NCBI GenBank assembly: GCA_038216165.1
Contig: JBBQQJ010000001.1
Coordinates: 1-50,831, forward strand
Length of the DNA stretch: 50,831 bases
Direction: 5' to 3'
Source: Gemmatimonadales bacterium
Lineage (GTDB): Bacteria > Gemmatimonadota > Gemmatimonadetes > Gemmatimonadales > GWC2-71-9
Part shown: positions 8,564-44,979 of the stretch, in pieces
How the letters are laid out: the number at the start of each line of letters is the position of its first letter
Position numbering within the stretch: the stretch's first letter is position 1
The notes under the pieces: model-generated
What the model saw: the letters and a program-made list of their open reading frames with translations, nothing else
Databases searched by the model: none
What the model was told of the DNA's origin: nothing
Position numbers and translations under genes: made by a program

Positions 8564-9265
8564 TCAATTGTCACCCGGGCCGCTCACCGCGGTCCCCGCC
8601 GGCAGCGCCGCACGGGCGGCAACGTCTTCCATCTGCTGCCGTCGGGTGCGCGCCCACCGGGGCAACAGGAGCGCACGTGACGCGAACGCGGCCGCGCCGG
8701 CGAGCCCGAGCGAGACCAGGGCGACCACCATGCCCGTATCGCCTGGTGCCCCCTGCATGGCGGCCCCCACCAGCGCGGCCACGGAGACCCCCATGCTTGC
8801 CAGCCCCAGCGACAACATCCCGACCGCGTCGCCCTTGACCGTGCGAAGGCGGAGGCGGTCGCCCGACGGTGTCGGCTCGACCAGCGCCTGCAGGTTGCCG
8901 TTGGTCCACTGGCGCAACGAGCCGTCGCGCTGCACCCGACCGCGCGCGCCGAAGGCCTCACGCAGGTCGACCACGAGTCGATCCCACTCCTCGTCAGACA
9001 ACCGCCGACCCAACGGCACCGCATGCGACACGCCGATCGGCAGCCCCAGAAAGCGCCGCGTGGTGGAGGCCTCGGGAAGGGCCACCGCGTGGGCTGCGCG
9101 GGCGATGGCACCGGCGGGAATACCCACCTCGCGCCCGATCTCCTCCAGCTCCCCCAGCGTCAGCCCGTGGGCCGATGCCGCCGCGCGCACACCCTGGGGC
9201 GGCGTCTCCGTGGCGCGCTGGAAGATGTCGGTGATTTCCTGCTCGGTGTAGCGGCGCTCAGTCAT
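8564..9265 (-). CDS. Hypothetical membrane protein
   Basis: Preferred start is MTERRYTEQEITDIF at 9265. The C-terminal half has two hydrophobic helices (GMLSLGLASMGVSVAALVGAAM and MVVALVSLGLAGAAAFA). High GC3. Confidence 0.6.
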   Translation of the reverse strand: MTERRYTEQEITDIFQRATETPPQGVRAAASAHGLTLGELEEIGREVGIPAGAIARAAHAVALPEASTTRRFLGLPIGVSHAVPLGRRLSDEEWDRLVVDLREAFGARGRVQRDGSLRQWTNGNLQALVEPTPSGDRLRLRTVKGDAVGMLSLGLASMGVSVAALVGAAMQGAPGDTGMVVALVSLGLAGAAAFASRALLLPRWARTRRQQMEDVAARAALPAGTAVSGPGDN

Positions 9266-9325
9266 GCTGGATAATGTCGGGCTGCGCTGGTCGGCGCAAC
9301 GCACGGCCGGTCGCGCGACTTCGCG

Positions 9326-9454
9326 CTACTCGAAAATTCCGATGCCGCCCAGCAGCCACCACAGGAGGAGGAACACCAGGACGGTGGTGAAGCAGCCGCC
9401 CCCCAGCTTCTTCGCGCCCCACCCGGCCGCAATCCCGCGCAGAATCTTGCTCAC
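9326..9454 (-). CDS. Small hydrophobic protein (42 aa), not in ORF track
   Basis: GTG 9454-9452 is preceded by GAGGAG. Translation: VSKILRGIAAGWGAKKLGGGCFTTVLVFLLLWWLLGGIGIFE*. About 90% GC3 by hand count, which supports coding. Confidence 0.4.
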   Translation of the reverse strand: MSKILRGIAAGWGAKKLGGGCFTTVLVFLLLWWLLGGIGIFE

Positions 9455-9502
9455 GATGCTCCTCGCTGATGTTGCGATGCCACCGCGTGGCACCGGGCTG
9501 CG

Positions 9503-10384
9503 TTACGCGCCGATCGGCTCCGAATGTCGGGCGACACCCAGCCGCCCCTGCTTGGCCACGTACATCGCGAGGTCGGCACACTTGAGCAGCCCGACCGCGG
9601 TGGTGGCATCGTCGGGGAAGATGGCGACGCCGATGCTCGCGCCGACGGCGGCGCTGACGCCGTCAATGACCATCGGTTCGGCGATGATGCCACGGAGCAT
9701 CATCGCGAGTGCAATGGTCGAGGCATCCTCCTGCATCTCGAGCGCCAACACGAGAAATTCATCGCCCCCGCGACGTCCGACGGTATCCCCGCCACGGACC
9801 GCCCCGGCCAGTCGTGTCGCCACCTCCTGCAACACGCGGTCGCCAACATCGTGACCGTGCGCATCATTGACCTGCTTGAAGCCGTCGAGGTCGATGAATA
9901 TCACGGCGAGCCGCCACCCATGTCGTTCCGCCTGCTCGAGGTCGTGCTCGAGACGATCGCGGACCAGCGTGCTGTTGGGCAGCCCCGTGAGGGCGTCGTG
10001 GAGCGCGCGATGACGCGACGCCTCCTCGGCGGCCTGACTGGTCGAGAGGGCGGACTCGCCCTGCCGAACGCGATGCTCCAGCGAATCACGCTCGGCGACC
10101 TCACCGGCCAGGGCGTCGTTGACCACGACCAGTTCCGCAGCAGCCTCCTGTACCTTCGCCTCGGCCGCTTCGTTCTTGTCGAGTGCCTGCTGCACCTGCA
10201 CCAATGGGACGCCCTGTGCCACGTCATCCTGAAGATCCGAATTCACCTCGGACAATTCGACCGCCGCCGTCTCCACCTTTTCCTTCACCTGTTCGCTCTG
10301 GTCGAGCACCCGCTGCAACGGCGGGGCATCGGCGTCGCCCGGTTCGGGCATCGTCGTGTCGTGATCGAAACTCATGCGTGTCAT
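9503..10384 (-). CDS. Diguanylate cyclase (GGDEF domain) with N-terminal coiled-coil region
   Basis: RGGDEFLVLAL active-site motif with upstream DLDGFKQVNDAHGHDVGD. The N-terminal ~110 aa are E/Q/A-rich and look like coiled coil. No recognisable sensor domain. Confidence 0.9.
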   Translation of the reverse strand: MTRMSFDHDTTMPEPGDADAPPLQRVLDQSEQVKEKVETAAVELSEVNSDLQDDVAQGVPLVQVQQALDKNEAAEAKVQEAAAELVVVNDALAGEVAERDSLEHRVRQGESALSTSQAAEEASRHRALHDALTGLPNSTLVRDRLEHDLEQAERHGWRLAVIFIDLDGFKQVNDAHGHDVGDRVLQEVATRLAGAVRGGDTVGRRGGDEFLVLALEMQEDASTIALAMMLRGIIAEPMVIDGVSAAVGASIGVAIFPDDATTAVGLLKCADLAMYVAKQGRLGVARHSEPIGA

Positions 10385-10571
10385 CTCCAGCGTCCGTGTC
10401 CCGGCCCCGCGCGCACCCCGTGCCGCGGCGGATCCCCAAGGCTGGCAGCGCCGCTCCGTCCTCGGACCCTAAAGCTGAATCGGGACGACGTCGTGCGCCA
10501 TCGGTCGATGGGTCATCGCTCTTAGGGATGAGGGAACCGGTCGGCGCAAGCCGGACCCCGCCGTTCGCCGT

Positions 10572-11828
10572 TCACTCAATCGCCTGATACACCCCGGTCC
10601 GGAACCGATCCTGCAGCACCGACCCGTTGGCCGGCATCAACTGCACCATCAACACCGCCACCAGTTCCTTCGCGGGATCCACCCAGTAGGTCGTGTGGTA
10701 TGCCCCCCCCCAGTCCCACTGCCCCGGTTCGCCGTATCGACCGGCCCGGGCAGGGTGGTGCAATATCTCGAACCCGAGACCGAACCCCGACACGCCATCG
10801 GCGTCATAGACCGGGCCGAGATGGTCACGCGTCATGAGCACCACACTGGCCGGTGACAGGATGCGATGGCCCAGGTGCCGCCCGCCCTGGCGCAACATCT
10901 CGAGAAAGACCGCATAATCGGCTGCCGTGCTCACCAACCCTGCCCCCCCCGCGAATGCGGTGCACGGCCCATCGACATAGTCACCTTGCCCGAGCGGCCC
11001 CGCCGGCGCGCGGGTGAGCACACCATCTCGCAGGGCGTAGACCGCGGCCAACTGCGCGGCATCCGATGCCGGCACGCAGAACGACGTCCCCGTCATGCCC
11101 AGCGGCTCGGTGATCCGCGCCTGCACCACCGCCGCCAGCGATTGTCCCGTCACCTTTTCGACGAGGCAGCCGAGCACGTCGGTCGCGTAGCCGTACACGA
11201 AACGCTCCCCCGGCTGCGCCACCAGCGGCAGCTCCGCGAGGGGAGCCAGCGCCGTGCAGATGTCCGTCGCCTTGTGCGCGAAGTACCACCCCGAACCGGC
11301 CTCGCTCCCCAGCCCGCGCGCCGCGTAGGCCGCCGCGACGAACGCCTCCCGGCCGTAGGACATCCCGGCCGAGTGGGTCAGCAGGTCGCGCACCGTGATT
11401 GCGCGGCAAAGTGGCACCAGCTGCCGCCCGCCGGTGGCACTGTCGGGCACCGACACCTTCGCGTCGGCAAACCCCGGCAACCAGCGCGTGATCCGATCGG
11501 AGAGCGCCATCCTCCCCTCCTCGATCAATGTCATGATGACCACGCTGGTGATCGCCTTCGTCTGCGAGGCGATGCGGAAACGGGTATCCATCGTCATCGC
11601 GCGCCCGGCCTCGCGATCCGCCATCCCGGTGGCATGCTCGTACACTACCCGACCGTGCTGCAGCACCACGGCGACGATCCCTGCCGCGCGCCCCTCGGCC
11701 ACGGTCCCCTCGAGCGTCGCGGTGAGGCGGGCGGCGGCCTCCGCATGCAGGGGAGCGCGGGCAGTGGGGAGCTGCGCAGCGAGTGGGGTGGTCACACACA
11801 GGACAAGACCGAGCAACGGAGGCCGCAT
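10572..11828 (-). CDS. Serine hydrolase, beta-lactamase/transpeptidase-like family
   Basis: Real start is MRPPLLGLVLCVTTPLAAQ at 11828. The rest of the 858-aa track ORF is R/G-rich shadow. SxxK motif in RIASQTKAITSVV. Confidence 0.85.
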   Translation of the reverse strand: MRPPLLGLVLCVTTPLAAQLPTARAPLHAEAAARLTATLEGTVAEGRAAGIVAVVLQHGRVVYEHATGMADREAGRAMTMDTRFRIASQTKAITSVVIMTLIEEGRMALSDRITRWLPGFADAKVSVPDSATGGRQLVPLCRAITVRDLLTHSAGMSYGREAFVAAAYAARGLGSEAGSGWYFAHKATDICTALAPLAELPLVAQPGERFVYGYATDVLGCLVEKVTGQSLAAVVQARITEPLGMTGTSFCVPASDAAQLAAVYALRDGVLTRAPAGPLGQGDYVDGPCTAFAGGAGLVSTAADYAVFLEMLRQGGRHLGHRILSPASVVLMTRDHLGPVYDADGVSGFGLGFEILHHPARAGRYGEPGQWDWGGAYHTTYWVDPAKELVAVLMVQLMPANGSVLQDRFRTGVYQAIE

Positions 11829-11933
11829 GGAGGGATCCTCTGGAATGGGGAGATTCCGTAATCTACGCCTTCGGGCACCAATGGGTGAGAGGCCGCCCTT
11901 TCGGGATCTGCACGCCTCGCCCACGTTTCGGGG

Positions 11934-13085
11934 ATGATCTCTCGCCTGCCGCGATGGATCGGAATCGGAGGCGCCCTCCTCGGCTTCGTTGCCGGGTGGG
12001 TCAATGCTGTGGGCCTCCTCGACTTCCGCCATCAGGCCGTATCCTATGTGACGGGCAGCGTCGCCGAAGTGGGCGTGGCACTTGCCAGTGCCGACATCGG
12101 CATGGCGCTGCACCTTGCGCTGATCGTCCTCGCCTTCATCGTTGGCGCCACCGGCAGCGGTCTCGTGGTGCGCGACGCCTCGATCGGCCGTGGCCGCAAC
12201 TATGCCGCGGCCCTCGGCCTCGAGTCGGTCCTCGTTGTCGCCGCCATTCCGCTCCTCACCCGCGAGATCGCGGCGGGGCAATACCTGCTGAGCGCGGCGT
12301 GCGGCCTGCAGAACGCCCTCGCCTCCACCTTCAGCGGCGCCGTGGTCCGCACCACCCACCTCACCGGCATCGCCACCGATCTCGGGGTTCTCCTGGGCCA
12401 CCGGCTGCGCGGGCTGCGCGTCGATGCCCGCCACGTGCGCCTGTTTGGCGCGATCCTCGCCGGCTTCACCACCGGTGCCGTCGCAGGCGCGCTCGCCTTC
12501 GCCCAGCTCGGCCCGCTGGCCCTCGTGGTCCCCGGGCTGCTCACCGCGGGGGCTGCGGTGGCCTCCACCCGGCTCCGTGCACCCAGCCGCGGTGATGGGC
12601 CGCTCGCGGTCACCCTGCATCACGCCACCAAGGGTGACCTCCCGGCCCTCTCCGACCTCTATGCCCGTGCCGTCGACCAACTTGCGGATGCCCACTACGA
12701 CGCCGCCGCCCGCGAGGCATGGGCCGGCTTTGCCAAACAAGAGGCCTTCGCCGCCTTCGTGCTCGAGGCCGAGACCCTGGTGGCCCGCACCGATGGGCTG
12801 GCCGTCGGCTTCGCGGGCCTGACGCCCCGCGGGCATATCGCCTCGCTCTACGTGGCCCCCGAAGCCGCCGGCCGCGGCGTGGCACGCACCCTCGTGGAGG
12901 CACTCCTCGTGCGCGCACGCGAGCTCGGGCACGCGGTCGTCAGCACCGACGCCAGCGCCGTCTCCCGACCCATCTTCGAGCGCCTCGGCTTCGCCGTGGT
13001 CACCGAGGAGCGCGTACCCCGCCACGGCGCCATCTTTCTCCGGTACCAGATGCAGCGCTCCCTCCCTCCCCAACCGATCGCGTGA
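11934..13085 (+). CDS. YoaK/DUF1275 membrane domain fused to GNAT N-acetyltransferase
   Basis: The N-terminal ~230 aa have DUF1275-type motifs ([33 protein letters not shown]). The C-terminal ~150 aa are GNAT-like ([25 protein letters not shown]). Confidence 0.8.
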
Positions 13086-13089
13086 CGCC

Positions 13090-13509
13090 ATGACGATGCC
13101 ACCGTTCCATCTCGCCTTCCCCGTCGATGACCTCGATGCTGCGCGCAACTTCTACGGCGGGCTCCTCGGCTGCGCCGAGGGACGCAGCAGCGACCAGTGG
13201 ATTGACTTCGACTTCTTCGGCCATCAGGTGGTCGCCCATCTCGCGCCCGATGAGTGCAGCCCCACCAGCACCAGTGCAGTCGATGGCCACGCCGTCCCGG
13301 TGCGGCACTTCGGCGTGGTGCTCGACTGGGACGTCTGGCAGGGGATGGCCGAGCGCCTCGCCGGGGCGGGGATCCACTTCATCATCGAACCCGGCATCCG
13401 CTTTCAGGGCCAGGTGGGTGAACAAGCCACGATGTTCTTCCTCGACCCGGCCGGCAATGCGCTCGAATTCAAGGCGTTCCGGGACAAGACGCAGTTGTTT
13501 GCGAAGTGA
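13090..13509 (+). CDS. VOC (glyoxalase/bleomycin-resistance/dioxygenase) family protein
   Basis: [28 protein letters not shown]... is a typical VOC N-terminus. 139 aa. The start lies 4 nt after the upstream stop. Confidence 0.85.
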
Positions 13510-13540
13510 GGGGTGAGGGGTGGGGGGTTAAAGGTGAAAC
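13506..13540 (+). repeat. Heptanucleotide array GTGAGGG GTGAGGG GTGGGGG GTTAAAG GTGAAAC
   Basis: Five consecutive 7-nt units begin with GT. The first unit contains the VOC stop codon TGA (13507-13509). G-tracts at 13510-13527. Confidence 0.8.
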
Positions 13541-13664
13541 GGGAACAGCCACAGCGCGCGGGGGGACCCTCTCGCAGCGGCCCTTGGCTGGCCACGTGCC
13601 CGGCGCGGGATCACGTCCCCGCACGGCCAGACGGAGGCCGCGGAGCGAGGTGGTCTCCCGGCGG
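13541..13664 (+). repeat. Long-hairpin repeat element, diverged copy (same family as 15149-15425)
   Basis: Shares GGGAAC...GACCCTCTCGCAGCGGCCCTTGGCTGGCCAC (31 nt identical) with the downstream copies. Also shares the right arm GGCCAG.CG.AGGCCGCGGAG.GAG..GGTC..CCGG.GG. The central part differs. Confidence 0.75.
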
Positions 13665-13804
13665 CGGCAGGGATGGGCAACGATCCATCGCCGAGCCGAG
13701 AGATCCAGGGCCATCCTGTGCGAGGAGTCAGCCTCCGTGGCGCCGGACAACCCCAGAGCTCTCGCTGCGCTCGAGATGACTTCCAGCCACACACGAGGCA
13801 CACC

Positions 13805-15094
13805 ATGACCAGCCGACTTGCCGTTGCTGCATTGCTCCCGCTCCTGGCCTGTGCCCCATCGGCACCCCCGGCCACCACCCCGGCCGGCGCCGCGACCCTC
13901 ACCCTCGCCGAGGGACTCCGCATCGCCGATCAGTATCGCGTGGCGGCCATCACCGAACGGCGCACCACGCACGCGGAGTACTGGCAGGCCATCGCCCCCT
14001 CGCTCGCCTCACCGCGGCTCCGGGTCGAGGAGGTCGGTCGGTCGACTCAAGGGCGCGCGCTCCGTAGCATCACCTTCGGGAACGGCCCCATCACCGTCCT
14101 CCTCTGGAGCCAGATGCACGGCGACGAGCCCACCGCCACGATGGCGCTCGCCGACATCTTCGCGTGGATGGCCGCGCCGGGTAGCGACCCGCTTCGCGAT
14201 CGCCTCATGCAGGAACTCACCGTCGTCATCCTCCCGATGCTCAACCCCGACGGGGCACAGCGCTATCAGCGCCAGAACGCTGGTGGTATCGACATCAATC
14301 GCGACGCACGCAACCTCAGCACGCCCGAGGGCCGCACGCTCAAGGCGCTGCGTGATCGGTTGCAGCCGCAGTTCGGGTTCAACCTGCATGACCAGAGCGC
14401 GCGCACGCGCGTCGGCCGCAACGGCCCGCAGGCCGCCATCGCCCTCCTGGCACCTGCGGCCGATGCCGAGCGCAGCTGGGGCCCGGTGCGGAGCAGGGCG
14501 CGCCAGGTCGCGGCGGGTATCGCCCGCACCCTCGCGCCGGAACTCCCTGGGCGCATTGCCCAGTATGACGACGGCTTCAACCCACGCGCCTTCGGCGACC
14601 TCATGCAGACCTGGGGCACCAGCACCGTCCTCATCGAAAGCGGTGCGCTCCCGAACGACCCCGAGAAGCAGCAGCTTCGCCGCCTCCACGTTCCCGCCAT
14701 CCTGGGTGCGCTCGACGCCATCGCCAGCGGCGCCTATGCCGCGGCCAATATCACGGATTACGATCGCCTCCCCTTCAACACCGGCGGCGCCGTGGACCTC
14801 CTCGTTCGAGGTGGTCAGATTGTCCTCCCCGGTTCGCCGCCGTATCGCGCCGACGTCGCCATCAACTTCGACGACGCCGTCGCCCGCACCGGCGGACGCA
14901 TTGAAGAGATCGGCGACCTCAGCGCGGTCGTCGCGATTGATACACTCGATGCCACCGGCCGCTACCTGCACCCGGGCACCGAAGCACTGGCCCGCGACGG
15001 CGTGCGACTCTGGCTCCCGATCGACAACCCGGCGGTGTTCGACCTGCGGGAGACCGCGGCCGCAAGTGGACCAGTGGTCCGCAGGATTCGGTGA
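13805..15094 (+). CDS. M14 family zinc carboxypeptidase (secreted)
   Basis: Preferred start is MTSRLAVAALLPLLACAP (signal/lipobox) at 13805. LWSQMHGDEPTAT is the HxxE zinc motif. Overall M14-like. Confidence 0.85.
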   Translation: MTSRLAVAALLPLLACAPSAPPATTPAGAATLTLAEGLRIADQYRVAAITERRTTHAEYWQAIAPSLASPRLRVEEVGRSTQGRALRSITFGNGPITVLLWSQMHGDEPTATMALADIFAWMAAPGSDPLRDRLMQELTVVILPMLNPDGAQRYQRQNAGGIDINRDARNLSTPEGRTLKALRDRLQPQFGFNLHDQSARTRVGRNGPQAAIALLAPAADAERSWGPVRSRARQVAAGIARTLAPELPGRIAQYDDGFNPRAFGDLMQTWGTSTVLIESGALPNDPEKQQLRRLHVPAILGALDAIASGAYAAANITDYDRLPFNTGGAVDLLVRGGQIVLPGSPPYRADVAINFDDAVARTGGRIEEIGDLSAVVAIDTLDATGRYLHPGTEALARDGVRLWLPIDNPAVFDLRETAAASGPVVRRIR

Positions 15095-15148
15095 TGGACG
15101 GGTGAGGGGTGACGGGGTGAGGGTGAGGGGTTGAGGCGTGGGTGGAGA
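15095..15148 (+). repeat. G-rich approximately 7-nt periodic array (GGTGAGG/GGTGACG type), G-quadruplex-capable
   Basis: It starts immediately after the M14 stop (TGA 15092-94). Sequence: GGGTGAGGGGTGACGGGGTGAGGGTGAGGGGTTGAGG. Five G3-4 tracts separated by 3-4 nt lie at 15100-15130. Confidence 0.8.
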
Positions 15149-15425
15149 AAGGGGAACCACCGCACCCGCCGGGTGACCCTCTCGCAGCGGCCCTTGGCTG
15201 GCCACTGGCCCGTCTTGCGATCGCTCCCTCGCGCGGCCAGGCGCAGGCCGCGGAGAGAGTCGGTCAGCCGGTGGGGGGGGAGCGAGACGTGAGACGTGGT
15301 AGGGGAACCAGCGCACCCGCCGGGTGACCCGCTCGCAGCGGCCCTTGGCTGGCCACTGGCCCGTCTTGCGATCGCTCCCTCGCGCGGCCAGGCGCAGGCC
15401 GCGGAGAGAGTCGGTCAGCCGGTGG
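15149..15425 (+). repeat. Tandem pair of ~125-nt long-hairpin repeat elements (period 152 bp)
   Basis: Copy 1 (15149-15274) and copy 2 (15301-15425) differ at 2 positions by eye. The 26-nt spacer includes G8 and the heptads GCGAGAC GTGAGAC GTGGTAG. Each copy is an imperfect palindrome centred on GCGATCGC, with pairing blocks CCGG.TGACC, CTCTC, GCGGCC and CTGGCC. Confidence 0.85.
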
Positions 15426-15434
15426 ACATCCCGC

Positions 15435-16091
15435 TCACACCCCGGGCATGAACCGACACCCCGCATCCTGCGCCCGGATCGCCGCGAAGAACCCCGACGG
15501 CTGCAGAATCACCCCCGGGATCAGGTTCGCCATCGCCGCCGCACGCGCATCGGCCGCCGGCACCTTCCCGCCATCGCGATAGCGAGCCACCGCGAAACGG
15601 AACGCCAGGTCACACGCCAGCACGATCCCCCCCCCGGCAATGAACCCCTCCATCGTCATCATCGCACGCGCCGGTGATGTCCCCTCGGGGACCGCACGCA
15701 TCGGATTCACCACAAACCACTTCTTCGTCCGGGGATTCTTCCACTTGGCCTCCTTGGCCACCGGAAAGCGCGCCCAGTGCGCATCGTGCATTGCCAGATC
15801 GATCGCGTTGTGGCGGATCACCAGCACCGTCGAACAGGTCGTCGCCTCGCCGTAGACACTCCGCACCTGCCCCGACCACATCCCGGCACGGAAGATCCCG
15901 ACACCCTCCTCCACCTCGGGCACGTCGAACACCGCGCGGAACTGCCCCGTCACCCGGTCCACCCAGGACATGTCCACGTCAGCCGCAACCGGCGACGGCA
16001 GCGGCGTGGCGGCGTGGGCATTGCCGGGCAGCGCCGGCAGCAGGGCACCGGCGCCGAGGGCGCCAACAAAATGACGACGAGAGGAAATCAT
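15435..16091 (-). CDS. Tat-signal exported protein of unknown function
   Basis: Preferred start is MISSRRHFVGALGAGALLPALPGNAHA, a twin-arginine signal at 16091. Last gene of the amidohydrolase string. Confidence 0.65.
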   Translation of the reverse strand: MISSRRHFVGALGAGALLPALPGNAHAATPLPSPVAADVDMSWVDRVTGQFRAVFDVPEVEEGVGIFRAGMWSGQVRSVYGEATTCSTVLVIRHNAIDLAMHDAHWARFPVAKEAKWKNPRTKKWFVVNPMRAVPEGTSPARAMMTMEGFIAGGGIVLACDLAFRFAVARYRDGGKVPAADARAAAMANLIPGVILQPSGFFAAIRAQDAGCRFMPGV

Positions 16092-16127
16092 GCGCGGCGC
16101 TCCAAGAAAGGACGGTGATCCCAATAG

Positions 16128-17462
16128 CTACGGGCGTGAAATGAACATCTCATACAGCTGCTCGTGCTTGCTGCCAAGCGGCACTTCGCGCCCATCGATG
16201 AACAGGTGCTTGGTCAGCGTTGTCGCCTCGAGCAGGTCGCCGGTGGTCACCACCAGATTCGCGATCTTCCCCGGCTCCAGCGAGCCCAGTCGGTCGGCCA
16301 CGCCAAACATCTCGGCCGGGGCCAGCGTCACAGACCGCAGCGCATCCGCCGGCGACAGCCCGAACGCCGAGGCCATCCCGGCCACGTAGGGCAGGTTGCG
16401 GCTCTCCGCGCCCTCGTCGCCCGACGTGATCGCGAAGCGCACGCCGGCGGCAGCCAGCTTGGCCGGCGCAGTGAAGTTCGCGTCGTACGGATCGTCCTCG
16501 CGGCCGGGGAGCGACATCACGCCGGTGAGGACCACCGGGATATCCTTCGCCTTCAACTCGTCGACCATCATCCAGGCGTCGCGACCGCCCATGATGATCG
16601 GGCGGAGCCCCGCTTCCTCCGCGAACGTCATCGCCGCGCGGATATCGGTCACCCGATCGGCGGCGAAGATCACCGGCATGCTGCCGTTGAGCATCGGGAG
16701 CAGCGCGGCGAGCTGCAGATCATGGCGTGGCCGCGGCAACGCGGCGTCCTTCGCGTAGGCGGCGTGCGCCTTTTCGTAGGCCTTGGCGTCCGCAAAAAAG
16801 GCCTTGAGCGAATCGAGCTGTGCCTCGCGCGCGCGATCGGCGTCCTGCGTGCTCCCGGCCGGGCGTGCGCCGAAGCGCCCGCCCCCGAAACCCGAACGCG
16901 GCAGCGTCATCATCATCGCCACATTCGGCACCACCGCCATCTGGGGGGGGGTGTCACCTGCGAGGTGGATCAACGTCGCCTGGCCGCTGATCACCCCGCT
17001 CCGCGGACTCGACACCACGTGGGTGATCCCCACGACACGGGTCACGCCCACATGCGCGCTGTGTGGATTGATCCCGTTGAGCGCCTGCGCATTCGGGTTG
17101 ATGTTGCCCACCTCGGAGGCGTCCATCGTTGCGGTCGCCCCCTGCGGGATCTCCGCCAGGCCCATCGTGGTGCCGGCATCCATCATCCCCGGCCAGACAT
17201 GGAGGCCGGTGCCGTCGATCACGCGGGCGCCGGCCGGCACGGTCGCGTCAGCACCCACGGCGACGATCTTCCCATCGCTGATCACCACGGTCCCGCGCGG
17301 CAGCACCGGCCCGCTCACCGGGTGGACCATCGCGCCCCGGATGGCGACCGTCTCGCGCGGGCCGGACCGCGGGTTGTAAGAGCCGAGCTGCGCGGCGAGG
17401 GGCGCGGTACCGAGCACCAGCGCGGTCGCGACGACGGGGAACCACTGCGGACGGGCGCTCAT
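16128..17462 (-). CDS. Amidohydrolase-family protein, HxH motif absent
   Basis: Signal peptide plus amidohydrolase-like fold. At the position of the metal-binding D-x-H-x-H it reads PGMMDAGTTMG. Joined to the upstream gene by an ATGA overlap (17459-17462). Confidence 0.8.
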   Translation of the reverse strand: MSARPQWFPVVATALVLGTAPLAAQLGSYNPRSGPRETVAIRGAMVHPVSGPVLPRGTVVISDGKIVAVGADATVPAGARVIDGTGLHVWPGMMDAGTTMGLAEIPQGATATMDASEVGNINPNAQALNGINPHSAHVGVTRVVGITHVVSSPRSGVISGQATLIHLAGDTPPQMAVVPNVAMMMTLPRSGFGGGRFGARPAGSTQDADRAREAQLDSLKAFFADAKAYEKAHAAYAKDAALPRPRHDLQLAALLPMLNGSMPVIFAADRVTDIRAAMTFAEEAGLRPIIMGGRDAWMMVDELKAKDIPVVLTGVMSLPGREDDPYDANFTAPAKLAAAGVRFAITSGDEGAESRNLPYVAGMASAFGLSPADALRSVTLAPAEMFGVADRLGSLEPGKIANLVVTTGDLLEATTLTKHLFIDGREVPLGSKHEQLYEMFISRP

Positions 17463-26424: not shown

Positions 26425-26559
26425 CGACCGATCGCCCTCGTGGGGGGGGTCTTCCGCCGTGACGGACTCGTGACGATCTTTCTGGCAGGTTCGGGAGTGG
26501 GACCCCGGCCTCCGTGCTGTGTACCCTTCCCTACTTTCCCCATCATTGAGGTCGTCCGC

Positions 26560-29118
26560 ATGTTCCTGAGGAACGTTCGGCTCGGCGCCCTGACCCTCCT
26601 CGCCTTGCTCGTGTCGGGTGGCGTGGCGTCAGTGGCAGCGCAGGAAACCGCCACCATTCGTGGTACCATCACCATCGCCGGTGGAACGGAGCCGCTCGCC
26701 GGGGTCCAGATCACCATCATCGGAACCGGCCTCGCCACCGTCTCGGCGCCCAACGGCCGCTACGTGATCCAGCGCGTGCCGCGTGGCGAGGTGACGCTCG
26801 TCTACCGATGGCTCGGCTACGCCCCGTATGAGCGCACGGTCACCATCACCGGCGATCAGACCGTCGACATCTCCCTCGAGCCGAAGCCGGTCTCGCTGGG
26901 TGACCTCACCGTCTCGGCCGCCTCGCGCGAGCCCGAGCGACTGACGGAGGCCCCCGCCGCGGTTACCATGATCGAGCCCCGCGTGCTGGCGAACACCGCC
27001 CCCACCGGGCAGGCGCCGTTGGCACTCGCCGAGGCACCGGGCGTGGACTTGGTGCAGAGCGGCGTGAATGACTTCAATATCAATGCGCGCGGCTTCAACT
27101 CGTCGCTGAATCGCCGGGTGCTCACGCTGCTCGACGGGCGCGACCTCGCCATCGCCTTCCTCGGCTCGCAGGAGTGGAACACCCTCCCGGTGGCCCTCGA
27201 CGAGCTCGCCAGCATGGAACTGGTCCGCGGCCCCGGCTCGGCCCTCTACGGTGCCAACGCCTTTGCCGGCGTGATCAGCCTCACCACGCTCTCGCCGCGC
27301 GAGGCACAGGGCGCCAAGATCTCCGTCTCGGGCGGTGAGCTCGAGTCGTTCAAGACCGATGGCCGCTATGCCACGGTGTTCGGGCAGGGGCGCTTCGGGT
27401 TCCGGCTCAACGCCGGCTACTCGACCAACGACACCTGGACCCGTTCGCGGACGCTGGTCGATCGCACGGCACTGCAGCAGGAGTATGCACCGGCAATCGA
27501 AGGCACCGACATCACCATCGGGCTGATGTCGTCCCCCGAGGTGCGCGCGCTCTCCGGCCAGACCTGTGGCGGGGACACCGAAGTGTGCGCCACGCTCGAC
27601 CGTACCCCGCAGGGTGACCGCGACCCGATCACCGCCATGTACGGATCGGCCCGACTCGACTACTACCTCGACAACGGCGGCGCCGTCACCGTCGAGGGTG
27701 GCGCGTCGCAGGTCGAGAACGAGACGCTCGTCACCGGCATTGGCCGCGTGCAGATCGTCAAGGGCTTCAAGCCGTACGGGCGCGTCGCGTACAACAGCGA
27801 CCGGCTGAACATCTTCGCCTACGCCAACCGGCGTGAGTCGAAGGAGCCGCAGTACTCGCTCGCCTCCGGCGCGGGGCTCCTCGAGAAGTCCACCATCTCC
27901 CACGTGGAGGCCCAGGGCAACCAGGGCTTCATGGACGGCAGGGCCCGGATCATCGCCGGTACCTCCTTCCGGCAGTACAACGTCAACACCGAGGGCACGC
28001 TGATGCGCCCCGAGGATGACGATCGGTCCGACAAGGTCTACTCCGCGTACGGCCAGGTCGAGTATCGCCTGGGTGACAAGATCCGCCTGGTCGGTGCCAT
28101 TCGCTATGACGAGGGCGACCTCTTCGAGGGCCAGGTCTCGCCGAAGGGTGCGATCGTCTATTCGCCCAACGCGAACCACTCGTTCCGCGCCACCGTCAAC
28201 CGCGCCTTCCAGACGCCGAACTACTCGGAGTTCTTCCTCCGGGCAGCGGCTGGAGCGCCGGCCAACTTTGCGCCGCTCGAAGCCGGTCTCCGCGCCTCGC
28301 CCCTCGGCGCTGCCCTCGCCGGCGTGCCGCAGGGCCAGCTCTTCACCAACAGTGCTGCGGTGCCGGTGTTCGCCCGCGGCAACGCCAACCTCGACGTCGA
28401 GAAGACCCTCGGCTACGAGCTCGGCTACAAGGGCGCGCTGTCGAGCCGGATCTACGTGACCATCGATGCGTACCTCAACAACATCACCGACTTCGTTACG
28501 GACCTCCTGCCGGGCGTGAATCCGACCTTCGGCGCGTGGACGGCGCCGGACGCCGTGCCGGCACAGTTCCGTGCCGCGCTCGAGGGGGCCGTCCGCCAGC
28601 AGCTCAGCGCCTCGCCAGCCACGGCGCTCGCCGCCGCCGGCCTCACCCGCATCGAGAACGGCAACACCGCTATCGTCGTCTCCTACACCAACGAGGGTGA
28701 CGTCGACCAGAAGGGCTTCGACGTCGGCCTCGGGTTCCGGGTCAGCGACGAGATCCGCCTCGACGGCACCTTCTCGTACTTCGACTTCACGGTGAACTCA
28801 CAGCGGGCCGGGGACCAGCTCATCCCCAACACCCCGGACAAGAAGGGGAGCCTCACGGCGGCCTATGCCGGGCTCCGCAACGGGCTCGACGCCAGCCTCT
28901 CGGTCCGTGCCGTCGCCGCCTACGACTGGGCCGCCGGCGTCTTCGTGGGCAGGGTGCCGAGCAGCGAGTTCGTCACCGCCTCGCTGGGCTATCGCGTGAA
29001 CCAGAACTTCCGGGTGTTCGCGGTCGGTACCAACATCTTCGACCAGCAGCGCTACCAGCTCTTCGGTGGCTCGGTGATCGGTCGTCGCGTGTTGGGCGGG
29101 ATCACGGCGATCTTCTAG
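26560..29118 (+). CDS. TonB-dependent outer-membrane receptor with N-terminal CarboxypepD_reg domain
   Basis: GAGG lies 8 nt upstream of ATG 26560. Signal peptide. IRGTITIAGGTEPLAGVQITIIGTGLATVSAPNGRYVIQRVP, then a plug domain (VDLVQSGVNDFNINARGF), and the C-terminal barrel ends ...GGITAIF. Confidence 0.9.
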   Translation: MFLRNVRLGALTLLALLVSGGVASVAAQETATIRGTITIAGGTEPLAGVQITIIGTGLATVSAPNGRYVIQRVPRGEVTLVYRWLGYAPYERTVTITGDQTVDISLEPKPVSLGDLTVSAASREPERLTEAPAAVTMIEPRVLANTAPTGQAPLALAEAPGVDLVQSGVNDFNINARGFNSSLNRRVLTLLDGRDLAIAFLGSQEWNTLPVALDELASMELVRGPGSALYGANAFAGVISLTTLSPREAQGAKISVSGGELESFKTDGRYATVFGQGRFGFRLNAGYSTNDTWTRSRTLVDRTALQQEYAPAIEGTDITIGLMSSPEVRALSGQTCGGDTEVCATLDRTPQGDRDPITAMYGSARLDYYLDNGGAVTVEGGASQVENETLVTGIGRVQIVKGFKPYGRVAYNSDRLNIFAYANRRESKEPQYSLASGAGLLEKSTISHVEAQGNQGFMDGRARIIAGTSFRQYNVNTEGTLMRPEDDDRSDKVYSAYGQVEYRLGDKIRLVGAIRYDEGDLFEGQVSPKGAIVYSPNANHSFRATVNRAFQTPNYSEFFLRAAAGAPANFAPLEAGLRASPLGAALAGVPQGQLFTNSAAVPVFARGNANLDVEKTLGYELGYKGALSSRIYVTIDAYLNNITDFVTDLLPGVNPTFGAWTAPDAVPAQFRAALEGAVRQQLSASPATALAAAGLTRIENGNTAIVVSYTNEGDVDQKGFDVGLGFRVSDEIRLDGTFSYFDFTVNSQRAGDQLIPNTPDKKGSLTAAYAGLRNGLDASLSVRAVAAYDWAAGVFVGRVPSSEFVTASLGYRVNQNFRVFAVGTNIFDQQRYQLFGGSVIGRRVLGGITAIF

Positions 29119-29140
29119 CCGACACGCATCACCACGACCG

Positions 29141-29181
29141 ATGATGGCTGTCCGGGTATCTTTCCGGGCAGCCATCGTTTT
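29141..29181 (+). terminator. Rho-independent terminator after the TonB-dependent receptor gene
   Basis: GATGGCTGTCCGG-gtatcttt-CCGGGCAGCCATC: 13-bp stem with one G-U pair, followed by GTTTT. It begins 23 nt after the stop. Confidence 0.75.
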
Positions 29182-29186
29182 GGGAG

Positions 29187-29256
29187 GTCGTCAGTCGTAG
29201 GTCGTAAGTCAGAAATCGTAGGATGGTGGGTTGCCCGTTCACCGTTCACCGAGCGC
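29187..29256 (+). repeat. Heptanucleotide array GTCGTCA GTCGTAG GTCGTAA GTCAGAA ATCGTAG GATGGTG GGTTGCC CGTTCAC CGTTCAC
   Basis: Read directly from the sequence. A strict 7-nt register holds for 9-10 units. (CTCACCC)2 follows at 29303-29316. Confidence 0.8.
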
Positions 29257-30134
29257 GGCGAAGCCACGTCCCCCTCCGGCGGCTGACGTCGCCGGCTGAT
29301 AGCTCACCCCTCACCCTCCCAACTATTCCTCTCTCTCCGCTTCCCCTCCCGATCCCTCTCGAAGGCCCGCTGCCGTCGCTCTGGTCGCTTGGCGCCATCA
29401 CGGGGCCCGGCGATGCCGTGCGCGAGGTGCAGCTCGCGGCCCCGCCGGGGTGGGATCCGGTCACAGGGCCGGCGTTGCCGGTGCTCTACCTCCAGGATGG
29501 GCAGAACCTCTTTGATCCGGCCACGAGTTTTGCGGGGCATTGGGGCGTGCTCGAGACCCTCGCTGAGCTGGGGGGGGCACATCCCATGCTGGTGGTCGGG
29601 GTGCCGAATCTCGGCGTGGGTCGCCTCAAGGAATACTCACCATTCGACGACGCGATCCGCGGGATCGGCGAGGGGGTGGGCTACCTCAAGTGGCTCAGCA
29701 CGGTGGTGAAGCCGCTGGTGGATGCGCATTGCGCCACGCTGCCAGGGCGAGCGCACACCGCCGTGGGCGGTTCCTCCATGGGCGGATTGTTCGCGATCTA
29801 CGCGGTCTTGGGGGGGGCCGCGACCTTCGGCGCGGCGGTGGTGATGAGTCCGGCGCTCTGGTATGCGGACGGGGCGGTCTTCCGCTGGCTGCGCCGGCAG
29901 CCGGGGCCGGTGGGGGAGGTGTACCTGGATGTCGGCCTGCTCGAGGGGGAGGACACCGTCTTCGACGCGCGGCGGATGCATGACCTGTTGCTCGACCGAG
30001 GCTGGACACTCGGCACCTCGCTGCACTACCTGGAGGACGCCGAGGGGGATCACGACGAAGCGACGTGGGCCAGGCGGCTGCGGGCGCAGTGGGTGCGGAT
30101 TGTGGGAATGATCTCCCCGCCCCCGGGCAAGTGA
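29223..30134 (+). CDS. Esterase-family alpha/beta hydrolase (IroE/enterochelin-esterase-like); N-terminus uncertain
   Basis: LPVLYLQDGQNLFD and GGSSMGGLFAIY (GxSxG). The first ~50 codons of the track ORF are made of the heptad repeats and have lower GC3. An in-frame GTG at 29418 or a non-canonical start near 29370-29400 is possible. Confidence 0.7.
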   Translation: MVGCPFTVHRARRSHVPLRRLTSPADSSPLTLPTIPLSPLPLPIPLEGPLPSLWSLGAITGPGDAVREVQLAAPPGWDPVTGPALPVLYLQDGQNLFDPATSFAGHWGVLETLAELGGAHPMLVVGVPNLGVGRLKEYSPFDDAIRGIGEGVGYLKWLSTVVKPLVDAHCATLPGRAHTAVGGSSMGGLFAIYAVLGGAATFGAAVVMSPALWYADGAVFRWLRRQPGPVGEVYLDVGLLEGEDTVFDARRMHDLLLDRGWTLGTSLHYLEDAEGDHDEATWARRLRAQWVRIVGMISPPPGK

Positions 30135-30222: not shown

Positions 30223-30261
30223 CCCAACCCAACCCAACCCAACCCAACCCAACCCAACCCA
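30223..30261 (+). repeat. Pentanucleotide microsatellite (CCCAA)7.8, equal to (TTGGG)n on the minus strand
   Basis: Perfect tandem repeat counted base by base, lying in the convergent intergenic region. Confidence 0.95.
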
Positions 30262-37865: not shown

Positions 37866-37984
37866 GATGTTGGATGTTGGATGTTGGACACTCGACATCG
37901 GCAACTCGATCCTGGTGAGCGACAGCGATGGTCGACTCCAATATCCACCATCCCATTACCGACATCCACACCAAGGACCCCTAC
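37866..37984 (+). repeat. Heptanucleotide-periodic intergenic spacer, starting with (GATGTTG)3
   Basis: The 119 nt (17 x 7) run from 6 nt after the esterase stop up to the ATP-grasp ATG. Units in register: GATGTTG x3, GACACTC, GACATCG, GCAACTC, GATCCTG, GTGAGCG ... ATCCACC, ATCCCAT, TACCGAC, ATCCACA, CCAAGGA, CCCCTAC. Confidence 0.75.
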
Positions 37985-42549: not shown

Positions 42550-42598
42550 GGTGAACGGTGAACCGGGGCCGCGCGTCAGTCTGGTTCACCGCGTCACC
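42550..42598. terminator. Hairpin between convergent crcB and the DUF5916 gene (possible bidirectional terminator)
   Basis: GGTGAACGGTGAACC (42550-64) pairs with GGTTCACCGCGTCACC (42583-98). That gives 9 bp plus 5 bp with a small internal loop and an 18-nt apical loop. No U-tract. The arms are themselves heptad repeats. Confidence 0.4.
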
Positions 42599-42627
42599 CA
42601 TCACGGCCGACCTCCCCCGTTCCCCAT

Positions 42628-44979
42628 TCACCCCTGCATCCGAAACAGATACGACAGCTTCAGGAAGAACCCGTCCTCCGTGCGCCGGAGCTGCCGCCGG
42701 CCATCGCGATCGGGTTCCTCGTGCGACGCTCCGTACCCCAGGTACACCAGCGTGCCCGGTGTCGGGAGGTAGGTGAAGAGGAAGTCGGTGCGCAGCGCGC
42801 CCTGGCGCCCGCCGAGGTCGCGCGTAAAGGCGCCGGTGGCGGGGTGCCGCACCACCAGCGGCAGCTCGGTGCGGGAGTTGTCGCGCAACGAGTCCTGGAT
42901 GTCGAGCGTGTACTGCGAGATGATCCGGACCTGCATCGCCCGGGAGAGCTGGTATTCCAGCCGCGCCCGCGGCACAATCCGCAGCGAGACGCGCGAGTCG
43001 TCCAACGGGCGGTTGACCTGCTGGTGATTGTACGAGAGGATCACCCGCGCCTGTTCGCTCGGCCGCAGCGTGGCGCTCGCCGTGATCCAGAGCAGGTCCC
43101 CGCTTGCCCACTCGAAAAAGTTTTCGTCGCGTCCCCAGAGCAGGAAGGCGTTGAACTGCGCGACGCGAAACGCGGGCGACCCCACCGTCACGAGGTAGTC
43201 GCGATTGGGAAGCCGCGGCGTCCCCACGAACGGCAGCACCGCGCCGGAGGGGGCCAGCACGCCATGGTTGCGGTACAGCGACGGATCGTACCCGAACGAC
43301 TCCTCGAGCCACGACGCCCCGACGCTCCAGCCACCGCGCCAGCGGGAGTTCACGTTGAAGTGCAGTTTGCGATCCTGGATCTGGCCACCATGCACGAAGT
43401 CGTCGTACTGCCAGGTGCCGTCGAGCACCACTTCGCCGGTGAGTGCTTCCAGGGCCGCCCCTTCGCGCAACCGCGTGAGTGAGTGCGCCACCGCCGCCTG
43501 CGCGATGCCCGGGCGGGTGATGAAGCCGGTGCGTGTGCGGAAATCGGCGTCAATCCCCGACAACGTGTACCGGGCACGAAAGCTCCGCCCGTTCCGCGTG
43601 TAGCCGGCCGACCACAACGGGGCGGTGGTGGCGGTCCCGTTCACCTCGTCCCGTGCAACGGCGCCGTGGAAGGTGAAGGAATGGATGCCACCGAGCACGA
43701 CGCGGCCATCGGCCGCCACCACCCGGTTCGCATCGGGCCCGTCGGATTGCTCGGTCCACGTCATCCCCAGCCGGGAGCCGGGCCCGAGGTCGCGGGTGAG
43801 GCGCATCACCCCGAAGCGGGGATGATCGCCGTGCCGCGAGGCGGCGCGGTCATCGAGCGCGGCCAAGAGGCCCACCTGCGTCCCGGCCACGCGCCCCGCC
43901 ATCTTGGTGGCCGCCACCGGCTGCACGATGCGGCGCGTGTAGATCAGGCGCGACGGCGCATCGAACTGCTCGATCCCATCCAGAAAGAACGGCCGCCGCT
44001 CCGGAAAGAAGAGCGCTTGGCGCGGGTCGAACGCGAACTGCCCCGCGTCGCTCTCCACCTGCGAGAAATCCGGATTGGCCGTGCCATTGAGGGTCAGGTT
44101 GGGGGTGATCCCCCACCGCACCGTGCCGCCCACCTCGGGAGCGCCGCCATCGTAGCCCCACCGCCCGACTGGCCCACTCCCCCCCCCACGCACCGCCGCG
44201 GTGAGGGTCGGGATGATGTCCACCACCACGCCGCGCTGCAATCCCTCGAGGCCAGCGAGCTGCCCGGATTGGGCGAGGAACGACGCCGCCGCCCGGGTGG
44301 CCGGTGTCCAGGTCTGCTCCTGACCGCTGCGCTGCACCACGCGCAGCACGTTGATTCCCCACGCCTGGCGCGCCCCCGACTGGAAGCGGATGCTCTTGAA
44401 CGGAATGCGGAGCTCCACCGCGTAGCCATCGGCGAGCAGGCGGCCCTTCGATGCCCAGACGAAGTCCTGCGACAGGTCCGGCGCCTCGCGCGTGGACACC
44501 GCGCAGTTGAAGCCGCCGCAGGCGCGTCCGCCACTCTCGTTCAGGGCGCCGTCGGCCTGCACCCCGAGCGGGTTCACGGCCAGGAAGGTGGCCTGGCGGC
44601 CGTCGTTGAAGGTCGAGAGGAAGAGCTGCACCTGGTCGTCGCTGCCGATCCGGTCGCGCTCGGCCAGCGTCGCGCGCACCGCCCCGGCCACGTCCCACGC
44701 CCGGATCCCCACGTGCAACGCCGTGGGCGAGTACCACACCCGCACCTCGGTGGAGTCGGTCGCGGCCACCTGGTCCACCGGGGCGTACTGGGAGAACCCC
44801 GTGAGGATCGCCGCCTGCTGCCACACCGGCTCGTCGAGCACCCCGTCCACCGTGATGCTCGCCTCGATCCGGGGTGGCCGCACCATGAGGTCACCCAGGC
44901 GGCCGTGATAGACCAACGAGTCGTTCGGACCGGCAACAAGGGCAAGCGCAAACAGGGGCAGCAGGGCCATGCGGTCCAT
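42628..44979 (-). CDS. CBM9-like / DUF5916 domain outer-membrane-associated protein
   Basis: Preferred start is MDRMALLPLFALALVAG at 44979 (or 44970). ITVDGVLDEPVWQQAAILTGFSQYAP is CBM9-like. The long beta-rich C-terminal region ends ...FFLKLSYLFRMQG. Confidence 0.75.
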   Translation of the reverse strand: MDRMALLPLFALALVAGPNDSLVYHGRLGDLMVRPPRIEASITVDGVLDEPVWQQAAILTGFSQYAPVDQVAATDSTEVRVWYSPTALHVGIRAWDVAGAVRATLAERDRIGSDDQVQLFLSTFNDGRQATFLAVNPLGVQADGALNESGGRACGGFNCAVSTREAPDLSQDFVWASKGRLLADGYAVELRIPFKSIRFQSGARQAWGINVLRVVQRSGQEQTWTPATRAAASFLAQSGQLAGLEGLQRGVVVDIIPTLTAAVRGGGSGPVGRWGYDGGAPEVGGTVRWGITPNLTLNGTANPDFSQVESDAGQFAFDPRQALFFPERRPFFLDGIEQFDAPSRLIYTRRIVQPVAATKMAGRVAGTQVGLLAALDDRAASRHGDHPRFGVMRLTRDLGPGSRLGMTWTEQSDGPDANRVVAADGRVVLGGIHSFTFHGAVARDEVNGTATTAPLWSAGYTRNGRSFRARYTLSGIDADFRTRTGFITRPGIAQAAVAHSLTRLREGAALEALTGEVVLDGTWQYDDFVHGGQIQDRKLHFNVNSRWRGGWSVGASWLEESFGYDPSLYRNHGVLAPSGAVLPFVGTPRLPNRDYLVTVGSPAFRVAQFNAFLLWGRDENFFEWASGDLLWITASATLRPSEQARVILSYNHQQVNRPLDDSRVSLRIVPRARLEYQLSRAMQVRIISQYTLDIQDSLRDNSRTELPLVVRHPATGAFTRDLGGRQGALRTDFLFTYLPTPGTLVYLGYGASHEEPDRDGRRQLRRTEDGFFLKLSYLFRMQG

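Follow-up and report, generated by a model that had tools for sequence, protein, structure and literature searches.

The tandem array of 7-nt units that overlaps the stop codon of a VOC/glyoxalase-fold gene at position 13506 of the window (the whole stretch of 50,831 nt analysed here, contig C1 of the assembly) is, at moderate confidence, one copy of a genome-wide, labile, REP-like class of intergenic elements that consist of tandem 7-nt units and lie at transcript ends. The genome (G000) is a Gemmatimonadales MAG of 2.8 Mb in 343 contigs with 69% GC, fragmented and about 90% complete, and the relatives compared are MAGs labelled Gemmatimonadales or Gemmatimonadota (phylum Gemmatimonadota). 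Genes were called with a crude codon-usage caller of our own, which yields 2665 genes covering 91% of the genome and whose stop positions are independent of the choice of start codon. Tandem arrays were scored genome-wide by a lag-k self-match scan, with TRF as second method. The closest relative, G013, shares a median protein identity of 79% with G000; a sample of 1.49 Mb was gene-called, and 819 of its orthologous gene ends were paired with those of G000. Beyond G000, array densities refer to four genomes, G013, G047, G053 and G042.

At the VOC gene end, the preliminary description of a GTGAGGG array that overlaps the TGA and runs into a hairpin repeat proved correct (Table 1). Hereby, TRF reports 3.3 copies, which read GTGAGGG GTGAGGG GTGGGGG G, and the GGGAAC that follows at 13541 begins an element of about 125 nt. 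Five units had been described, of which the first three or so are sound, whereas GTTAAAG and GTGAAAC (13528-13540) are degenerate. The first unit had furthermore been taken to supply the VOC stop codon. This is contradicted by the orthologues in 11 genomes of the same genus, all of which end at the same residue (FAK or FAR, then the stop, which is TGA in seven of the 11) while none of these gene ends carries a heptad array. Judged by this comparison, the VOC stop appears to be older than the array, which merely abuts it. In four of the 11 congeners the M14 peptidase gene starts no more than about 10 nt from the VOC stop, and the spacer of about 295 nt in G000 is therefore an operon-splitting insertion. 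The VOC-M14 spacer of G013 holds the homologous hairpin element free of heptads, which indicates that the focal array is separable from the element it adjoins. At this locus the original stop would thus have been kept, and a partnerless array would have been added between the stop and an older hairpin element.

Within 250 nt of the focal array no complementary partner was found, the best reverse-complement match being 10/14, and the predicted fold of 13500-13680 has an energy no better than that of shuffled sequences (z = +0.59). Exact-pattern scans for the VOC/array junction in metagenome contigs and genome contigs gave zero matches. With respect to MITE features, the site is empty in more distant congeners and the spacer is shared with G013 in diverged form; inverted arms are present, no target-site duplication is readable, and no transposase is linked. 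Of the roles suggested earlier, the one of a repeat element is supported, in the sense of insertion or turnover, by presence and absence among relatives.

Table 1. Features of the window discussed in the text.
Feature	Position	Strand	Evidence and remarks
VOC/glyoxalase-fold gene	13090..13509	+	ORF; TGA stop 13507-13509 overlapped by first heptad; C-terminus kept in 11 congeners
Focal heptad array, GTGAGGG x3.3	13506..13528	+	TRF period 7; G-rich in mRNA sense; partnerless downstream
Degenerate array tail, TTAAAG GTGAAAC	13529..13540	+	Sequence reading
Imperfect-palindrome repeat element, about 125 nt	13541..13667	+	Opens with GGGAAC; homologous copy in same G013 spacer, heptad-free
7/8-nt array, GGTGAGG type	15097..15140	+	TRF; begins 3 nt past M14 peptidase stop (15092-15094)
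Two tandem copies (period 151) of the ~125-nt hairpin element	15150..15425	+	TRF, repeat comparison
Short C-rich stretch CCCGCTCACACCCC (minus strand GGGGTGTGAGCGGG)	15430..15443	-	Holds stop 15435-15437 of convergent gene 15435..16091
GGTGAAC x2 (42550-42563), loop, complementary GGTTCACCGCGTCACC	42550..42598	+	Directly after crcB TAG 42547-42549
GGGTGAA TGGGGAA CGGGGGA	42613..42633	-	First unit contains DUF5916 gene stop 42628-42630
TGAACGG CGAACGG	10559..10574	-	First unit holds stop 10572-10574 of beta-lactamase-fold serine hydrolase gene
GATGTTG x3.3	37866..37888	+	Begins 6 nt past esterase stop; complementary partner downstream
GTCGTAG-type array, then CCGTTCA array	29187..29251	+	Just 3' of canonical hairpin-plus-TTTT terminator that follows gene 26440..29118

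The four further gene ends that had been cited together with the VOC gene (M14, crcB, DUF5916 and the serine hydrolase) all check out, those of crcB, DUF5916 and the hydrolase with merely two to three units each, which makes them weak evidence taken alone. Downstream of the M14 array, the C-rich stretch at 15430 may be a degenerate partner of the array at 15097. The crcB array has its partner at 42583-42598, giving a hairpin with heptad arms between the convergent genes crcB and DUF5916, and the fold of 42540-42640 is not better than shuffles (z = -1.23). A consensus scan of 9000-17000 for rho-independent terminators found none at the VOC, M14 and hydrolase gene ends, and no T run follows the focal, M14 or crcB/DUF5916 arrays. 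A search against Rfam 15 at gathering score was negative for the whole window, as was one of 13400-15500 at E <= 1.

Genome-wide, the lag-k scan detects 111 period-7 arrays in intergenic and 21 in coding DNA of G000 (0.44 vs 0.008 per kb). Per kb, intergenic DNA thus has about 55 times as many period-7 arrays as coding DNA, which does not hold for other periods; each of the other periods from 4 to 15 yields at most 25 intergenic arrays. TRF agrees, with 214 intergenic period-7 rows. Overall, G000 has about 69 arrays per Mb with a median length of 23 nt. A strong enrichment near stop codons, for which the preliminary description had proposed a genome scan, is evident: the 5' end of the G-rich strand falls within -25 to +15 nt of a same-strand stop in 46 of 148 intergenic arrays, as compared to 8.9 ± 2.9 (maximum 17) in 500 random placements in non-coding DNA and to nine arrays in the control with the C-rich strand. 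Counted by gene, 105 of 2407 ends show at least two exact heptads within -12 to +43 of the stop; the same count gives 10 at period 8 and 4 at period 9. At gene ends, period 7 gives 51 runs with 10 or more lag matches, and periods 5, 6 and 8-11 give at most five. The stop codon is touched or contained by about 43 of the 105 gene-end arrays (about 40%). By type of spacer, density amounts to 0.37 per kb in divergent, 0.65-0.81 in tandem and 0.98 in convergent spacers, and the 21 arrays in divergent spacers of G000 argue against the reading as transcript-end elements.

The frequent overlap with stop codons could mean that the arrays are stop-codon cassettes. As 7 equals 2 x 3 + 1, three units with TGA would close all frames and thereby guard against read-through or frameshift products, which corresponds to the out-of-frame TGA backstop considered earlier. 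In line with this, a sense-strand stop triplet is present in 43% of the gene-end arrays, compared to 24% after letter shuffling and 9% on the antisense strand, and many stops lie inside units. However, 57% of the gene-end arrays lack any stop triplet, no frame is closed in 60 of 105 arrays and all three are closed in just 11 of 105, so that the backstop idea is weak. Moreover, 11 of the 46 distinct units carry a stop, the excess being driven by two abundant families, the focal array closes two frames only (0 and +1), and there are arrays remote from stops as well as in divergent spacers. We consider a cassette function very improbable.

The idea that an array supplies the stop of its gene, not supported for the VOC gene, does hold elsewhere for a subset of genes. 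Where arrays start at least 3 nt upstream of the stop, none of six orthologue alignments reaches both C-termini, compared to a background of 53%. Many G000 proteins possess array-encoded C-terminal tails (GEG, NGER and SER, also CGERCEG, each followed by the stop), and one carries an array-encoded extension of seven residues. Read from these alignments and tails, the array appears really to supply the stop codon in such genes.

The arrays are strictly oriented. In co-directional spacers, arrays adjoining the stop are G-rich in mRNA sense, and those near the next start are C-rich. The same order emerges in a test that does without gene annotation: of neighbouring arrays, 23 pairs run G-then-C and two C-then-G, and a G array has its reverse-complement partner (at least 12/14) on the right in 28 cases vs two. 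A palindrome that starts with its G arm does so whichever strand is read, and in a convergent pair the G-rich arm therefore comes first for either gene. A partner of at least 12/14 within 250 nt exists for 18 of the 46 stop-proximal arrays, while reversed and complemented controls give 0-1. We rely here on explicit arm complementarity with these controls and not on folding energy, because in this DNA of 69% GC folding energies equal those of shuffles and are uninformative (z near 0); the predicted folds do show arm-to-arm stems. On this evidence, about 40% of the stop-proximal arrays are clearly hairpin arms, and some 40-50% of the arrays constitute the 5' arm of a long hairpin whose 3' arm is a complementary C-rich array downstream, a pairing that the preliminary description had not noted. 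The gap between the arms has a median of 50 nt (range 8-169 nt) and often accommodates a second GC-rich hairpin element. GTGAGGG arrays, for instance, commonly flank an element of about 55 nt, GGGGGAACA..GGGCC ... GGCCC..TGTTCCCCC. Six copies of the 125-nt hairpin element are spread over five loci, four of which have G-rich heptads directly after a stop and ahead of the element.

The G-rich sense strand raises the question of G-quadruplexes acting on transcription or translation at gene ends, as proposed for the repeats of Xanthomonas and Nostoc, and folding of GGGAATC repeats into G4 structures has been shown by Rehm et al. (PMC4692102). In the window, the stretch 15100-15130 of the M14 array contains five G3-4 tracts, and the focal array offers GGGG, GGGG and GGGGGG. 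These are, however, just three separate tracts in the focal array, most units of G000 and G013 are devoid of G3 tracts (GGTGAAC, GGCGAAC, GGATGTT, GGTCGTA, GGTGAAA, GATTGGC), and paired complementary arms would compete with G4 folding. A G-quadruplex function is thus unlikely to a high degree, if a shade less so than the stop cassette. The G-rich arm might alternatively act through stacked Shine-Dalgarno-like motifs (GGTGA, GGAG, GAGG) by which ribosomes would be retained or reloaded once translation has terminated. Motifs of this kind generally resemble the complement of the 16S 3' tail, and the commonest units do open with GGTGA or GGAGA on the sense strand right after stops. In contrast, GGTCGTA, GGATGTT, GATTGGC and GACCAGT are unlike Shine-Dalgarno sites, and in tandem spacers the next start follows the C-rich and not the G-rich arm; we give this reading as little credence as the cassettes. 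As general accounts, TGA backstop, G-quadruplex and Shine-Dalgarno stack were all discarded, each of them fitting only some of the units.

Comparison with relatives reveals rapid turnover. At the M14 gene end, G013 is the only congener with an array, namely a long hairpin of a different unit, GGTGAAA, and across the phylum three of 52 M14 orthologues have any heptads nearby. A quinone-oxidoreductase-like gene (QOR, contig C91) ends in arrays in three genomes, with the units GGTGCGG, GACCAGT and ATAGACG; each array overlaps the stop, and beyond the conserved FGKVVL no two of the proteins have the same tail. Of three array-overlapped genes looked for in five congeners, one, a ferrochelatase-like gene (contig C33), had no orthologue in any of the five. 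Across the 819 paired ends, an array is present in G013 at 16 of 39 ends with and 73 of 780 ends without an array in G000 (41% vs 9.4%; odds ratio 6.7, p = 5e-7), with different units in nearly all cases. When both spacers measure at least 60 nt, the co-occurrence drops to 50% vs 25% (p = 0.026), and for convergent pairs conditioning on the spacer abolishes it (29% vs 29%). In G013, a quarter to a half of the spacers after genes carry an array. The signal at the same gene ends is therefore largely one of available space: in most cases arrays fill whatever real spacer follows a gene. The suggestion that arrays define, or are selected at, 3' ends is sustained in part, namely with regard to their strong directional concentration at gene 3' ends, whereas much of the co-occurrence between relatives reflects spacer length.

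Such lability is what would be expected of neutral slippage microsatellites that have neither function nor spreading mechanism and are confined to intergenic DNA only by their lethality within genes. In relatives the arrays vary and are frequently missing, spacer length accounts for much of the positional co-occurrence, and contig ends carry twice the expected number of arrays, which fits assembly breaks at variable repeats. On the other hand, the non-triplet periods 4, 5, 8, 10 and 11 would be equally disruptive in genes and are not enriched between them, and neither the strict G-first orientation and stop proximity nor the existence of complementary paired arms is accounted for. Slippage at random seeds would also not lead to a few units dominating each genome: the leading units are GGTGAAC (35), GGTGAGG (28) and GGCGAAC (19) in G000, which also has GTGAGGG, GGATGTT and GGTCGTA, and GGTGAAA (150), GGTCGTA (48) and GGTGAAC (33) in G013. 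This dominance argues for spread or homogenisation within the genome rather than for independent local slippage. Purely neutral microsatellites therefore appear improbable, albeit less so than quadruplexes.

A candidate for a trans-acting partner is provided by S23p (PF05635), the protein of rRNA intervening sequences. S23p, a relative of the DGR protein Avd, folds as a four-helix bundle and is pentameric. A solved structure is available from Xanthomonas (PMC4990558). In the 23S rRNA intervening sequence of Coxiella burnetii, a long terminal inverted-repeat stem encloses the S23p ORF, tandem GACAGAT heptamers beside this ORF vary in number between strains, and the stem is cut by RNase III (Warrier et al. 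2016, PMC4990558). S23p genes are present in 31 of 41 genomes of the genus studied here and are likewise nearly always enclosed, in their case by inverted heptad arrays, whereas the arrays of the window enclose no S23p gene and are not located in rRNA. At the 32 S23p loci of the genus, complementary 7/8-nt arrays flank the gene on both sides in 20 and on at least one side in 31; for comparison, the background among all G013 genes is 3.1% and 26%, respectively. G013 has three S23p genes, each within inverted arrays of GGTCGTA, GGTGAAA or the 8-mer AAAGAGAG, i.e. all three are enclosed by that genome's top unit families.

Unit type also differs between the two S23p clades. In S23p clade 1, which has 16 loci, all 15 with a detected array have pyrimidine-containing units of the GTCGT/GAGTC kind, and purine-rich units are found at 11 of the 16 loci outside this clade. 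On the tree, unit type requires six changes vs 9.2 in shuffles, with 10 of 500 shuffles as low, a statistic that is inflated by kinship. Three sampled genomes without S23p have 18, about 20 and 61 (G042) arrays per Mb, compared to 215 per Mb in G013. It is conceivable, though on the unlikely side, that there is a family in which array-enclosed S23p genes, kin of the 23S intervening sequences, are the full members and heptad hairpins that lack a gene make up the non-autonomous majority, and that S23p recognises or propagates the stems. Put as a rival to the class assignment given at the outset, the hairpins would be non-autonomous relatives of selfish, intervening-sequence-like elements that carry S23p, and their location at gene ends would reflect target preference or mere tolerance; this we regard as similarly improbable. 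The Coxiella precedent of variable heptamers next to an S23p gene supports such a kinship. However, no S23p gene was detected in the window or anywhere in G000, which nevertheless has 69 arrays per Mb (in an assembly that is about 90% complete and fragmented), and G042 reaches its 61 per Mb without S23p. Heptad arrays can therefore exist without a detectable S23p gene. The match between flanking units and abundant units could furthermore be simple sampling, and no mobility mechanism is known for S23p.

Returning to the assignment to a labile class of tandem 7-nt repeats, close counterparts have been described in other phyla. Rehm et al. (2015, PLoS One, PMC4692102) reported heptameric repeats, GGGAATC in Xanthomonas and GGGGA(C/T)T in Nostoc PCC 7120, which are intergenic and rare between divergent ORFs. 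Their G-rich sense strand lies within 50 bp of stops, some overlapping the stop, their C-rich strand lies close upstream of ORFs, and each genome has 70-75 convergent inverted pairs (PMC4692102). The repeats are mostly transcribed, and transcripts tend to start or stop there; earlier work cited there found heptamers to be over-represented among bacterial SSRs (PMC4692102). G000 shares the over-representation of 7-nt over other unit lengths, the position of the G-rich sense strand at or across the stop (46/148, with the focal array overlapping its TGA), the scarcity in coding DNA and divergent spacers, and the frequent convergent inverted pairs (23 vs 2), even though the focal array itself is partnerless. 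It differs in that most of its units lack G3 tracts, only the GTGAGGG family qualifying for a G-quadruplex. In addition, dozens of unit sequences coexist per genome, the arrays are shorter, inner GC-rich hairpin elements often lie between the arms, and the phylum is a different one. By these shared features, the focal array is an ordinary member of the repeat class known from Xanthomonas and cyanobacteria, here in another phylum. We found no published report of such arrays in this phylum.

Several other systems show partial likeness. In 1990, Mazel and co-workers reportedly described the short tandemly repeated repetitive (STRR) heptanucleotides of the cyanobacteria Calothrix and Nostoc. To our knowledge, the original STRR description holds neither a stop-codon rule nor an inverted-pair rule. 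Three heptanucleotides are given for Calothrix in the citation of that work by Rehm et al. (PMC4692102), and the STRR resemble the present arrays in that several distinct heptanucleotide units stand in tandem in the non-coding DNA of one genome, while phylum and units differ. In marine Beggiatoaceae, TAACTGA direct repeats form 169 sets in one draft genome (MacGregor 2015, PMC4679880). They resemble the focal units as a TGA-containing 7-nt unit in tandem at many intergenic sites, and are unlike them in that there is one unit, almost only in direct repeats (one indirect), with a proposed 5'-regulatory role, in another phylum.

The arrays of G000 also resemble REP/BIME elements as abundant, small palindromic repeats at gene ends. 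REP/BIME elements are thought to stabilise upstream mRNA. REPs proper are single palindromes of about 35 nt that contain a conserved tetranucleotide and are associated with a RAYT (Y1) gene. A search of G000 for Y1 transposases (PF01797) gave no match, and the single Y1 transposase gene of G013 is flanked by GTCGCTGAAGCGAC palindromes, not by heptads. RAYT-REP was therefore rejected as a general account.

Taken together, we propose that the arrays change in length by slippage, that they spread or are homogenised within the genome, and that they persist at transcript ends since they are tolerated there. This account offers no reason for the period of 7. Their persistence might in addition be favoured by a role as double-stranded RNA stems at transcript ends, which could hinder 3' exonucleases or be cut by RNase III, similar to the rRNA intervening-sequence stems. 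Position and hairpin architecture make a role in RNA 3'-end formation or stability plausible, and an intervening-sequence-like origin and a function as RNase III substrate are plausible by analogy. Any action of the arrays would most likely be that of a double-stranded RNA stem at the 3' ends of mRNAs. That they overlap stop codons would be a by-product of arrays abutting a gene end or extending into the final codons, where units with TGA or TAG would close the frame and leave short array-encoded tails.

Many bacterial genomes contain more heptamer repeats than expected, and G000 adds a clean, quantified case. Hereby, a strict rule holds in this genome, with the G-rich arm first and starting at the stop, and is combined with a fast replacement of units between species. 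The large number of unrelated units, most of them incapable of G4 formation, weakens the G-quadruplex explanation. In practical terms, some proteins have their last codons rewritten by an array, operons are split, and short-read assemblies break at the arrays. The near-universal enclosure of S23p genes by arrays in the genus offers a concrete candidate for a trans-acting partner, and if the S23p reading were true, it would explain both the accumulation of heptamers in bacteria and the function of S23p.

Among the relatives of the genome under study (G000), inverted arrays of 7- or 8-nt units enclose nearly every gene for S23p (PF05635), the 23S rRNA intervening-sequence protein, in this genus (32 loci, L126-L157). 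Arrays lie on both sides at 20 of these 32 loci, compared to a background of 3.1% when the same test is applied to all genes of the closest relative, G013, and on at least one side at 31 of 32 (background 26%). The unit type differs between the two S23p clades. G013 also carries one Y1/RAYT-like transposase gene (C18:232482-232820; L278), flanked by REP palindromes of the GTCGCTGAAGCGAC type; together these form a repeat system distinct from the heptads.

In G000, heptad arrays encode the terminal residues of many proteins (GEG*, NGER*, SER*, CGERCEG*), and the resulting C-terminal tails are unlike those of the orthologues. A GEG* end is likewise array-encoded in a ferrochelatase-like gene (C33:16301-17503), for which no orthologue was found in five congeners at E <= 1e-30. 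Contig C33 could be contamination, or the gene could be lineage-specific; the contamination rating of the assembly is 7%. Within 100 nt of G000 contig ends, 10 heptad arrays are found where 4.7 are expected, about twice as many. Short-read assembly probably breaks at these arrays, which are thus probably under-counted.

Locations of arrays, array-encoded protein ends and S23p genes (examples of each), and of palindromic repeats
Feature	Location	Strand
Heptad array at contig end	G000 C8:13-76	
Heptad array at contig end	G000 C50 end	
Heptad array at contig end	G000 C153 end	
Array-encoded protein end	G000 C25:739-1335	-
Array-encoded protein end	G000 C258:2254-3207	
Array-encoded protein end	G000 C87:3873-4349	-
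Array-encoded protein end	G000 C91:3323-4294	-
S23p locus	G013:C14:116640-116942	
S23p locus	G013:C15:64119-64427	
S23p locus	G013:C13:61651-61932	
~125-nt palindromic repeat	window 13541-13667	
~125-nt palindromic repeat	window 15150-15425	
~125-nt palindromic repeat	G000 C71:1256-1381	
~125-nt palindromic repeat	G000 C15:18517-18622	
~125-nt palindromic repeat	G000 C14:10521-10622	

Other elements also occur 3' of genes in the window. A canonical-looking intrinsic terminator (29140-29195; stem GATGGCTGTCCGG..CCGGGCAGCCATC followed by GTTTT) lies downstream of gene 26440..29118, with heptad arrays immediately 3' of this terminator, and in G013 (AAAGAGAG)n immediately follows the stop of the orthologue. 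A perfect pentamer array, (CCCAA)x7.8, occupies 30223-30261, about 90 nt 3' of gene 29418..30134, whose G013 orthologue has a GAGTCGT heptad hairpin across its stop.

The imperfect-palindrome repeat of about 125 nt (core ..GACCCTCTCGCAGCGGCCCTTGGCTGGCCAC..) is present in six copies at five loci, has a diverged homologue at the equivalent position in G013 and gave no match in Rfam. In G000 and G013 the VOC-M14 spacer measures 280-295 nt and contains a hairpin element. When positions 13510-13804 of the window are compared with L005, L007, L008 and L009, M14 starts no more than about 10 nt from the VOC stop in several congeners, so that the pair resembles an operon.
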